Shown piece by piece: positions 24,583-35,541 of a stretch of DNA of 64,000 bases. Position numbers and translations under genes: made by a program. The stretch comes from Minisyncoccia bacterium (GTDB lineage: Bacteria; Patescibacteriota; Minisyncoccia; Phycocordibacterales; CAJBRS01), in NCBI GenBank assembly GCA_038215155.1, contig JBBQRF010000001.1, forward strand, positions 54,042-118,041, read 5' to 3'. Position 1 is the stretch's first letter. Every line of letters starts with the position of its first letter. The notes beneath the pieces were generated by a model that was given only the letters and a program-made list of their open reading frames with translations, was not told the DNA's origin and searched no databases.

Positions 24583-25533
24583 TCACTCTTTTACTTTATC
24601 TTGCAATAGAGATAGATGAAATTTGGTGATTTCATCACCTCGCTTCTGGTTAAAAAATCCATACCAGTCGCCGCAAGGATTGAAGTCAATCAAAATCAGC
24701 TGTCCTTCTTTGGTTAGCAGAAATTCAGGACTAGCAAAAGATAGGTTTAGCTTTTTAAGCAAGATTTTGCATGCATCCTTCACACTGGTCGCAAGCTGAA
24801 AATTCTTCCAATTAAGTCTGTCGAACTTCTTTGTGGAGGCATTTCTTTTTTGTATTTTACTTAATACGCTCGCGCAGACTGCCCAACACTTATCTTCGGT
24901 AATGTGAGTCCTGACGTGATAAGAAGTATCAATCAGTTCCTGCCACTGCCACAGCAACCCATCCTCAACTATTTTCGGATTCAGGATACATTCACGTGTA
25001 ATCGTGACTTCCTTCGAGTAGCTTCTCTTATTGGAAATCATGAAAGAATGTCCCAGACTTTTTTTACACAGAATTGTAGGGGACAATCGAGTTGGAGGTA
25101 ACATTCCATTAATGCAAAATGAGGGGACCAGTAATCCACTTTTCTGAGCTTGATCCAGTAGGAATATCTTCGAATCTCCATTGGAAATGCGTTGGGGTGT
25201 TCCTGGAAACCATTGGTTCGGGAACAACCTACCTAATTCCTCTAGAAATTGACCCAGAACATACCTATAAACTTGAGGAAACGAGTATTTGGAATTAAGC
25301 ATTAAAGCGCTATCGGCTCGAATTGGAGCTGATGCGTAAAAAATCGGTCGATTTATAGGTCGCAGCTGATAATAGCAGACTGTCTTTTTATCGACATATC
25401 CAAAGGATAATTCACCTCGGATCGAGTGAATATCTATAATATGGATTGGCAAACCAAAATGTGGAGCTAATCTTTGAAGAGCGACCAAGTGTGGATCCAC
25501 CGAACTAACCCGACTCGATATGACAAAGATCAT
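24583..25533 (-). CDS. ATP-grasp protein resembling RiPP (graspetide, MdnC/MvdD-type) maturases
   Basis: Three features resemble MdnC as I remember it: the N-terminal MIFVISS...D start, a central K..LLDQAQKSGLLVP segment, and C-terminal LNLSFASPEFLLTKEGQLILIDFNPCGDWYGF (compare MdnC LNYGAIDMIVTPDERYIFLEINPVGEFFWLE). An HMM search is needed to confirm. Confidence 0.55.
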   Translation of the reverse strand: MIFVISSRVSSVDPHLVALQRLAPHFGLPIHIIDIHSIRGELSFGYVDKKTVCYYQLRPINRPIFYASAPIRADSALMLNSKYSFPQVYRYVLGQFLEELGRLFPNQWFPGTPQRISNGDSKIFLLDQAQKSGLLVPSFCINGMLPPTRLSPTILCKKSLGHSFMISNKRSYSKEVTITRECILNPKIVEDGLLWQWQELIDTSYHVRTHITEDKCWAVCASVLSKIQKRNASTKKFDRLNWKNFQLATSVKDACKILLKKLNLSFASPEFLLTKEGQLILIDFNPCGDWYGFFNQKRGDEITKFHLSLLQDKVKE

Positions 25534-25594: not shown

Positions 25595-25714
25595 TTAGCC
25601 GCAAAAATGCTTGGTGGGGCGTCGAACTTTCTTGCTCATCTCTTGGATGAGTTGCTCCTTCGAGCCTTCCAACACTCCTAACTTCCGCATTTTTCTGCAC
25701 ATGAGCTTTTTCAT
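25595..25714 (-). CDS. unannotated 39-aa ORF (candidate precursor peptide)
   Basis: My translation: MKKLMCRKMRKLGVLEGSKEQLIQEMSKKVRRPTKHFCG. GGAGGT lies 3-4 nt before the ATG. It sits between the kinase stop and the ATP-grasp gene and is followed by a terminator hairpin. Confidence 0.45.
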   Translation of the reverse strand: MKKLMCRKMRKLGVLEGSKEQLIQEMSKKVRRPTKHFCG

Positions 25715-32860: not shown

Positions 32861-33376
32861 CTACGTGTTGGCGCAGTTGTGGCAACTCTTGCAGGACATA
32901 CATGAACCACAATCGCCACTTGGTTCTCCGGAATTACCCCAATTTTCGGAGATGACACCGAAAGTTGAGACTGCGACTGATGCCGCATTCAGGACTTTCC
33001 CTTCAAGTGATTCTCCACGACGACGCGGGCGATGATGGATGAAACGTCCAAATCTGGTTAAGCAAAACTCCTCGTAATCCAGAGTGAACAGGATGAAGTT
33101 ATGCCACATCTCATCAATCTTCGGTGGAGGAGCTATGGGCGTCGTGTTGGTAGCGCAGAGATACAAATATAGTTTTGTATCCTCGAAGCAGTGTACTGCA
33201 TCCTCTTCTTTCCATCCGTACTTATCCACCATGCGATGAATCAACGGAAGGAAAATGAATGCCAGAACATACTTAAGATCGACTCGAGACGCTGACTGAT
33301 CGTTAATCTCTCTGTCTTCTTTATCGGCCCGTGTACGCTTCGCACCCGTTTTAGGGGGTACAGCTATTGTTTTCAT
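32861..33376 (-). CDS. DUF1399/GRDP-like domain protein with a C-terminal CxxCxxCxxCxxC tail
   Basis: WKEEDAVHCFEDTKLYLYL...IDEMWHNFILFTLDYEEFC...FGRFIHHRP matches my memory of the W..A...Y.RFL / D..WH.HiL.T..Y..fC / HH.P family. The last 18 aa are GDCGSCMSCKSCHNCANT (checked codon by codon, 32864-32917). Confidence 0.6.
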   Translation of the reverse strand: MKTIAVPPKTGAKRTRADKEDREINDQSASRVDLKYVLAFIFLPLIHRMVDKYGWKEEDAVHCFEDTKLYLYLCATNTTPIAPPPKIDEMWHNFILFTLDYEEFCLTRFGRFIHHRPRRRGESLEGKVLNAASVAVSTFGVISENWGNSGEPSGDCGSCMSCKSCHNCANT

Positions 33377-33650: not shown

Positions 33651-34859
33651 ATGAAAGAATTTCATCTGGAAGACATTCCTGTACGGTTTCACCAAAAAAA
33701 AGATGCTCCAATTTATATCAGAGTTCAGTTTTTGGCTGGAAGTCGCTTTGACGAAAAGGAAGGTACTGCCCACTTTCTAGAACATATGATGTGCGCAGGC
33801 AGCCAAAAATTTACCACCAAGAATTTATTGGCTGAATACATAGAAGCTGTGGGTGGAAATTTCGCCTTAAGCACTAGTAGTGATTATATTAATATTGATA
33901 TCCAGGTTCCGACAAAAGATGAGATGAAGATTGCGGTGGTGATATTAGATGAAATGGTGAATCATTCGCTTTTTGAGCCCGCAACCTTAGAGACTGAGAG
34001 GGGCTCAATCTTGTCCGAACAAGTTATAGCCAAAAATGCACAACGTTCTTATATTCATACAGTATTCAAGAAATTAGCCTATCAAAAAACTGATATTGCA
34101 AAAAATGTCCTCGGAACCAAGGAGTCTGTGATGACTATAACCACGGAGGATCTAAAAAAACACAGGACCAAATATATCCATAGGCAGACTTTAAAAATCT
34201 TAGTTGTGGGAGATATTAGTGAGGAAGAACTCATAAAGGAAATGCGAGGTATAAATTGGGCAACTGGTCCATGTTTTATCGTGGTTAATTTACCCATAGT
34301 AGCAAATCAATTATTTGTCCTTGAAATTTATAATTCAAAAGAGGCTACCCTTCGAGCCGGTTTTAGATTAAGTACTTTTGATATTAAGAATCGAATCTGT
34401 GGGGATATTCTCGCGGAGTTTTTAGGCAGTAGTCGAAGTGGCATTTTAAGTCAAGAACTGCGATATAAAAGAGGTCTGATCTATTCCGCTTCCGCACACC
34501 ATTTTCAATCGATTGATGGGGGTACTTTTTCTGTTACTACCTCCACCGAGGTTAAAAATTTTGCCGAAGTTTTGTCCGTCATTAAACAGATCATAGAAGA
34601 TCTGATCGCTCAGGGAATTCCCGCCTCCACATTGAAATATATAAAATCTAAAATATTAAAATCTATGAAAATAGATTTACAGACCTCTAAAGCTTGGGTG
34701 AATTATATTGAGAATTATGATTTAGAAGAAACAAGCAGATACTTAGAGGATATAAGTGAAGGGGATATAAAAAATTATATCAATCAAAATTTTGCTATAG
34801 ATAAATTTTTTGTGGCCGTGTGCGGTCCAGAAGATCTTAGGATGATTTTAGAAAAGTAG
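33651..34859 (+). CDS. M16 (pitrilysin/insulinase) family zinc peptidase
   Basis: Inverted zinc motif HFLEHM (HxxEH) with a downstream Glu (LETERGSILSE). 402 aa with two M16 lobes. Confidence 0.85.
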   Translation: MKEFHLEDIPVRFHQKKDAPIYIRVQFLAGSRFDEKEGTAHFLEHMMCAGSQKFTTKNLLAEYIEAVGGNFALSTSSDYINIDIQVPTKDEMKIAVVILDEMVNHSLFEPATLETERGSILSEQVIAKNAQRSYIHTVFKKLAYQKTDIAKNVLGTKESVMTITTEDLKKHRTKYIHRQTLKILVVGDISEEELIKEMRGINWATGPCFIVVNLPIVANQLFVLEIYNSKEATLRAGFRLSTFDIKNRICGDILAEFLGSSRSGILSQELRYKRGLIYSASAHHFQSIDGGTFSVTTSTEVKNFAEVLSVIKQIIEDLIAQGIPASTLKYIKSKILKSMKIDLQTSKAWVNYIENYDLEETSRYLEDISEGDIKNYINQNFAIDKFFVAVCGPEDLRMILEK

Positions 34860-34889
34860 CCCCCAACATTTAAGTTGAGAGGCTAGTCT

Positions 34890-35006
34890 TCAGCTGGGAT
34901 CGTGATCGGGACCGCTCGAATCGTGGCTAGAATCGCCACAGGAACCATCGTTGCAGTCGCTACAATCATCAGCTTTCTGGGAGACCATGATGTTTATATT
35001 TAGCAT
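34890..35006 (-). CDS. unannotated 38-aa acidic Cys/Asp/Ser-rich ORF
   Basis: My translation: MLNINIMVSQKADDCSDCNDGSCGDSSHDSSGPDHDPS. AAAGGAGGT lies 3-4 nt before the ATG. It is 61 nt downstream of the membrane-protein gene and convergent with the M16 gene. Confidence 0.45.
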   Translation of the reverse strand: MLNINIMVSQKADDCSDCNDGSCGDSSHDSSGPDHDPS

Positions 35007-35067
35007 AGTACCTCCTTTCTAAGGTGAATGCTAAACTTTTTTATTAAAAAAGCAACTCCTTTAAAAT

Positions 35068-35460
35068 TTAAATAAAATACAAATAAACTATAGGCAAAAT
35101 AACAGCTAGAAATGGATAATACCCTTTTAGAATGTATTGATTGACTAAGGCTGGTGTGGCATAGACGTTGGCCCCGGGCAAAATACTGTAAAAAACAAAG
35201 GTAGCTAAAATTAGGAGTAGCAGGGCGCCGAGAATATTTGCCAGAGTTTGCCGGCGACCAAGATACCCTACCGTTACATATCTCTGGATTACTAAGTAAC
35301 AGAAAATGAAAATTAGAATGTAAACAATGGCTCGCACAAAAAAGTGGCCAGAGGATGTGCTGCCGAAGGAGTCAATTCTTTTTAATAAACTGCTTGGAAT
35401 TGAATACCAGAGCAGGGTGGTGGGATAAAAAGAGAGGATAAGATTAAGAATTATGTTCAT
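35068..35460 (-). CDS. hypothetical 4-TM membrane protein
   Basis: 130 aa with four hydrophobic helices. No family recognised. Confidence 0.6.
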   Translation of the reverse strand: MNIILNLILSFYPTTLLWYSIPSSLLKRIDSFGSTSSGHFFVRAIVYILIFIFCYLVIQRYVTVGYLGRRQTLANILGALLLLILATFVFYSILPGANVYATPALVNQYILKGYYPFLAVILPIVYLYFI

Positions 35461-35541
35461 CTAAAATATTTTATCACACTTCTAATGCAAACTTGACTTA
35501 TTTATGAGAGGGTCCAAGATGGAAAAAGCCCTATAAAACCC

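Follow-up and report, generated by a model that had tools for sequence, protein, structure and literature searches.

Does the short space between a peptidase gene and a gene for a hydrophobic protein hold a gene of its own and, if so, is its product connected with the peptidase? The window, by which we mean the whole 64,000-nucleotide stretch of DNA that was analysed, contains a gap of 208 nt between the stop of an M16 gene (34859) and the stop codon (35068) of a 130-aa hydrophobic ORF, as an earlier note on this sequence had described. The 38-codon ORF claimed for this gap was found at 34890..35006 on the minus strand, with its ATG 61 nt below the hydrophobic ORF, as had also been stated. The product, MLNINIMVSQKADDCSDCNDGSCGDSSHDSSGPDHDPS, contains 8 Asp, rather than the 9 counted previously, together with 8 Ser and 3 Cys, the latter at residues 15, 18 and 23 and thus in the CxxCxxxxC spacing already reported, and the two reported His are residues 28 and 35. 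Glu, Tyr and Thr are absent from the peptide and Pro from its leader, with a predicted pI close to 4 and a net charge of about -7 to -8. The peptide starts with a brief hydrophobic segment, MLNINIMV, which an acidic linker connects to a C-terminal core. The length of such an ORF is not significant by itself (106 ORFs of at least 25 aa were present in 10 kb), and the mini-ORF is significant because of its conservation and not because of its length. By exact look-up the peptide was absent from the source annotations and from gene and protein collections, including one of 15 billion proteins, and no Pfam or NCBIfam family was found for it or for the other acidic mini-peptides described below.

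Homologues of 34-42 aa were found on three other metagenomic contigs that represent two further lineages; a 42-aa homologue (E = 2e-4) came from a full HMMER scan of 1.84 billion proteins and two more copies came from a metagenome scan. The peptide-bearing set consists of four loci (the window, L004, L005 and L006) in three independent lineages, and as a counterpoint the exact Cys3His peptide occurs in only these three. The core SCGDSSHDSSGP is identical at 12/12 residues across the copies while 12-16 of the 36 bases differ, including switches between TCN and AGY serine codons, and the synonymous sites of the mini-peptide gene are saturated (pS at least 0.77 versus pN 0.21-0.25). The invariant core can be written as C-x2-C-x-D-x-SCGDSSHDSSGP-[DE]-[HY]-D, and C15, C18, C23 and H28 are retained in all three lineages in the pattern C-X2-C-X4-C-X4-H. 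When the genomes are compared, the N-terminus varies but the C-terminal core does not, and part of the mini-peptide is more conserved than the adjacent M16 enzyme.

The sense frame alone is open in 4/4 copies, and each antisense or shifted frame contains a stop in at least one locus. Coding in antisense frame -1, which looks conserved (17/24), was considered and rejected, given stops in 4/4 loci; the other two antisense frames contain a stop in one to three of the four loci each. The mini-ORF is conserved and its frame is intact in the relatives, and neither of the two findings that the earlier note had set against it, a lack of conservation or a disrupted frame, was seen. The mini-ORF is a genuine gene whose protein sequence is under purifying selection. 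That it arose by chance, or is a piece of a pseudogene, and that its Shine-Dalgarno (SD)-like sequence is accidental might be suspected from the fact that the gene is uncalled in any source annotation and that ORFs of such length are common in the window. Against this, the protein has been kept while its synonymous sites are saturated, only the sense direction is open in frame, and independent lineages retain both SD sites and terminators; this reading is exceedingly improbable and is already effectively refuted by the homologues and the coding-level conservation. One further database match, to the 1245-aa protein P0037 (E = 1.3e-9), was discarded, since it reflects low-complexity CGSDSCDSD repeats rather than homology, and a scan of viral contigs with the mini-peptide profile gave no match.

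Expression signals lie on both sides of the mini-ORF. Upstream, an SD site, AAAGGAGGT (35010..35018, minus strand), lies 3 nt before the ATG in the arrangement AAAGGAGGT-ACT-ATG. The arrangement GGAGGTA-NN-ATG is common to this gene and the 39-aa ORF at 25714, in agreement with the earlier note, whose statement that strong SD sites are rare here also holds: GGAGG, AGGAG or GAGGT is found upstream of 2 of the 61 long ORFs in the window. Comparable AAGGAG(G) sites are present in front of the L004 and L006 homologues and of other acidic mini-ORFs, and the L006 peptide locus has a promoter-like TTGACA-16-TATCTT. Downstream, an intrinsic-terminator-like hairpin (34881..34860) with a T-rich tail (34851..34881 together, minus strand) directly follows the peptide stop codon and occupies the 30-nt space between the converging mini-peptide and M16 genes; equivalent terminator hairpins are present 3' of the homologues in L004 and L006. 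RNA folding predicts another hairpin over the SD and AUG region (34998..35036, minus strand), which pairs GAGGU with ACCUU and AUGCUAAA with UUUAGCAU (dG -14.1 kcal/mol, z = -3.66; 2/200 shuffles fold equally well) and could serve as a translational gate. For L004 the prediction is another hairpin that also pairs the SD (z = -3.26), and for L006, L012 and L014 there is none; SD sequestration as a conserved riboregulator was rejected, being predicted only in the window and L004.

The higher GC content that had been noticed for the mini-ORF is real (0.50 versus 0.40 for the window), but about half of the excess comes from amino-acid composition, which together with local codon usage predicts 0.45; horizontal transfer is not needed as its source. 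Scans of the GC-rich patch with Rfam, in gathering and permissive modes, and for tRNAs gave no match, so that the patch is not a known RNA. At the protein level, a PDB profile search with the mini-peptide matched no solved structure, and AlphaFold2 without metal returned no secondary structure and no confident fold (pLDDT 54).

The gene on which the mini-ORF converges (33651..34859, plus strand) is a single gene for an M16B zinc peptidase of 402 aa. It carries both Pfam domains (M16 and M16_C) and, as claimed, an intact active site, HFLEHM (HFLEH...E), with H41, E44, H45, E116 and E123 invariant among four orthologues. Among solved structures, its best relative is 3hdi, the homodimeric M16B BH2405. 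The enzyme belongs to a subfamily of about 55 clusters, separated from generic M16 proteins by a score gap from 248 to 165 bits, and it scored 23.9 bits against PqqF, for which the cutoff is 320. By inspection, neither the mini-peptide nor the M16 protein has an obvious N-terminal signal sequence.

At the peptide loci the M16 orthologues are only 37-46% identical between lineages, and the pairing of mini-peptide and M16 is kept in every homologous locus found (window, L004, L005 and L006), tail to tail at a distance of 30-59 nt, a count that rests on loci retrieved with the peptide alone. The M16 gene is the only conserved neighbour of the mini-peptide gene. As a counterpoint, the two genes converge and are therefore not co-transcribed. 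Genes for a 7TM histidine kinase, a NUDIX protein and a hydrolase also recur near the peptide loci, and for this reason the adjacency of mini-peptide and M16 could be inherited synteny among related genomes.

Among loci retrieved with M16 alone, other SD-led acidic mini-ORFs converge on M16 in L012/13, L014/15 and L016/17; these mini-ORFs of other lineages lack Cys and are unrelated to the Cys3His peptide. The same scan detected 9 such mini-ORFs in 158 kb of these Patescibacteria loci versus 0 in 514 kb of unrelated M16 loci, this negative control being made up of M16-profile matches on viral contigs, that is, distant M16 genes with 19-30% identity where most of the query aligned. Three of the ten M16-subfamily lineages examined (L007, L008/9 and L010/11) had no acidic mini-ORF near M16, and in L018 only a less acidic small ORF was found, about 1.9 kb upstream of M16. 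The acidic mini-peptides seen so far fall into the types Cys3His, PEGxxDGSDDFxDS, GEGSDG..EYD and GPDHDDY. Among the matches listed in a genome-contig search with the M16 protein, a Muribaculaceae locus was set aside as irrelevant, and PADLOC gave no defence-system link for the mini-peptide, M16, the hydrophobic protein or the PF27765 protein discussed below.

The relative L006 shows a modular structure of leader and core. Two peptide genes (pepA and pepB) flank its M16 gene and are identical over about 85 nt, comprising the 5'UTR, the SD and 11 codons (MMFAFIYQRDD), after which they diverge completely, and the paralogue behind the common leader is Cys-free; the window has a single copy. There is a modest chance that diversifying acidic mini-peptides of this kind, unannotated and strongly translated, form a Patescibacteria-specific system in which they are partnered with a homodimer-type M16B and processed without a classical RiPP maturase. 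If true, episymbiotic bacteria would make ribosomal peptides of a new class, acting for example as metal-handling or host-interaction factors.

The mini-peptide is probably the own substrate or the precursor of the adjacent M16 peptidase. In the fuller version that we tentatively favour, with somewhat less than even confidence, a mini-peptide consisting of leader and core is a dedicated client of the converging M16B peptidase and the core may bind metal. The gene would be efficiently translated into a 38-residue cytoplasmic mini-peptide with two modules. One is a short and lineage-variable hydrophobic N-terminal leader with the acidic linker behind it; the other is the strongly acidic C-terminal core, which does not vary and carries the C-X2-C-X4-C-X4-H ligand pattern. 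M16B, as a homodimeric 'peptidasome' in the manner of BH2405, would capture the mini-peptide, whose hydrophobic N-terminal strand would dock at the active-site beta-sheet. We infer that the enzyme would cleave the peptide and place its cut between leader and core, by which the acidic core would be released or turned over, and that the core would bind one metal ion through Cys3His; any post-translational modification would be equally presumptive. Metal chelation, which the earlier note had suggested, is compatible with the invariant Cys3His pattern.

Several other readings have to be weighed against the dedicated client. The peptide might act on its own as a micro-protein that binds metal, for instance to buffer or chaperone Zn, Fe or Cu or to serve as a mini redox centre; M16 would then not process it, and its adjacency to M16 would reflect gene order only. 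The invariance of C15, C18, C23 and H28, with their 2-4-4 spacing within Asp and Ser, fits this, the core is far more strictly conserved than the enzyme beside it, as would be expected of a unit that folds and binds a ligand, and the recurrence of the 7TM histidine kinase and NUDIX genes points to conserved synteny in the clade. Unrelated Cys-free acidic mini-ORFs hold the same place beside M16 elsewhere, however, and the Cys-free L006 paralogue with the same leader points to a shared handling system and not to a shared metal site; with only three Cys and one or two His available, no predicted structure and no match to a solved metal-binding peptide, we consider this reading rather unlikely. 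The possibility that the peptide regulates M16 or inhibits it as a pseudo-substrate, filling the chamber or ligating the catalytic zinc like a cysteine switch, appears quite improbable. Protease/inhibitor gene pairs are common, the pairing with M16 is conserved, a strong SD implies stoichiometric or excess production, and Cys and His are good zinc ligands. Yet Cys-free acidic peptides occupy the same position in other lineages, the available portion of an M16 review (PMC12731061) describes no inhibitor of this kind, and the present data do not separate inhibition from turnover.

It is also unlikely, though less so than inhibition, that the peptide is a modified precursor, a graspetide with Ser-Asp ester rings or another RiPP, for which a distant enzyme would be the maturase and M16 the leader peptidase. 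An ATP-grasp gene in the window (24583..25533) has a weak match to the RiPP maturase family TIGR04187 (E = 6.6e-11) and is a candidate for such a distant maturase, but it lies 9.4 kb away and adjoins a different small ORF, and the flanks of 10 kb on either side in L004 and of 6 kb on either side in L006, as well as the available part of L005, contain no ATP-grasp or other maturase. Graspetides need Ser/Thr donors and Asp/Glu acceptors, and the core is accordingly rich in Ser and Asp (8 of each in the 38 residues), but it has neither the CPR leader motif Phhx(1,2)h nor the core signature TxxxTx(6-10)Dx(1-4)D, and RiPP cores are normally variable where this one is invariant. One leader with different cores in L006 would suit a precursor family, CPR graspetide clusters with metallopeptidases are documented (PMC8939145), and in L018, with a different peptide, an ATP-grasp lies directly upstream of M16 on the same strand.

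The retroviral-type zinc knuckle, C-X2-C-X4-H-X4-C, has the ligand order CCHC and a basic surface. The mini-peptide resembles it in having four potential zinc ligands in 2-4-4 spacing within about 14 residues, but its ligand order is CCCH, its surface is extremely acidic and no profile match to solved structures was obtained. Unlike SCIFF/ranthipeptides, which have six Cys in about 45 residues and a radical-SAM/SPASM maturase, it has three Cys and no NCBIfam match.

With respect to M16 systems, the dedicated-client reading has its closest parallels in AlbE/AlbF with subtilosin, PttP1/PttP2 with class III lanthipeptides and PqqF/G with PqqA, in which, as here, the gene for a small ribosomal peptide adjoins an M16 zinc peptidase. 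According to PMC12731061 and PMC10885120, M16B enzymes act on peptides of about 30-70 residues and include the maturation proteases AlbE/F for subtilosin and PttP1/P2 for class III lanthipeptides; the mini-peptide would fit the M16 chamber in size and, as in those systems, its N-terminal part looks removable and its C-terminal part functional. In contrast to their heterodimeric pairs, M16 is encoded here by one gene, of the homodimer type and most similar to BH2405/3hdi. The peptide and M16 genes face each other and do not make up an operon, radical-SAM enzymes, lanthipeptide synthetases and PqqB-E are not conserved with them, and the core is invariant across lineages. An invariant core with a variable N-terminus is the opposite of what most RiPP precursors show and would be explained equally well by a functional mini-protein or a cofactor-like product. 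The window peptide, without Glu and Tyr, also differs from PqqA with its E-x3-Y motif and pqqB-E genes. FusC/PqqL, which are described in PMC12731061 as periplasmic single-chain M16 peptidases of about 920 aa that cleave the small acidic Fe-S protein ferredoxin of a host for iron uptake, offer a likeness in that their substrate is small and acidic and holds its metal through Cys, as the mini-peptide may do as a putative M16 substrate; the M16 protein described here is 402 aa and has no obvious signal sequence.

In L018 the M16 gene is preceded, at a distance of 90 nt and in the same orientation, by a graspetide-type ATP-grasp gene (TIGR04187, 226 bits), with a TPR gene and a small ORF nearby. 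This arrangement agrees with that of CPR graspetide loci of ATP-grasp branches 1 and 2, in which TPR proteins and metallopeptidases are present (Makarova et al. 2022, PMC8939145), and from this neighbour and this match the M16 subfamily is tied to ribosomal-peptide maturation elsewhere. The mini-peptide shares with CPR graspetides (PMC8939145) the host group, a small precursor missed by gene callers, a metallopeptidase nearby, joined by a TPR gene in the L018 locus of this M16 subfamily, and a core rich in hydroxyl and carboxyl side chains. It differs from them in that no ATP-grasp is adjacent at the four peptide loci and that three Cys and one His are invariant, and its motifs were not found in the available part of the supplementary files of PMC8939145. 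A literature search on Patescibacteria, RiPPs and M16 returned nothing specific.

Patescibacteria (CPR) are uncultured episymbionts with reduced genomes whose small proteins are almost entirely unannotated, and the mini-peptide gene shows that a conserved mini-protein can be missed by annotation. The Patescibacteria M16B subfamily gains a concrete candidate for a natural substrate, and several sister families of acidic mini-peptides are added. In genomes that rarely use SD sites, a strong SD is a practical search handle for hidden peptide genes.

The wider gene island to which the peptide had been assigned was not borne out by comparison, since the ThiF, nitroreductase, PaaK-like, methyltransferase and ATP-grasp genes of the window are not beside the peptide in relatives. 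No modifying enzyme is common to the four peptide loci, M16 being the only shared enzyme, and no CxxxCxxC radical-SAM protein was detected in the window or related loci. A resemblance had also been proposed to the GDCGSCMSC tail (32864-32917) of a PF27765 (UCP032817-like) protein with a Cys-rich tail (32861..33376), but it is not significant, as BLASTP gave E = 1.9 and the peptide HMM -6.4 bits; the best match of this HMM in the PF27765 family reached 10.3 bits, in the N-terminal Cys stretch of P0021. The hydrophobic ORF directly upstream of the mini-ORF on the same strand (35068..35460, minus strand) had been called a 4-TM protein and a possible immunity or export partner. Hydrophobic peaks in its profile number four, two of them strong and two weaker, in keeping with four TM segments but leaving the number itself approximate. 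The role as a partner is not supported, the protein being an ORFan, with no homologue but itself among 5.8 billion proteins, and different genes lying upstream of the peptide in other loci. The gene may nevertheless be co-transcribed with the mini-peptide gene, and the sole promoter-like site on the mini-ORF strand lies at 35477..35450, upstream of the hydrophobic ORF.

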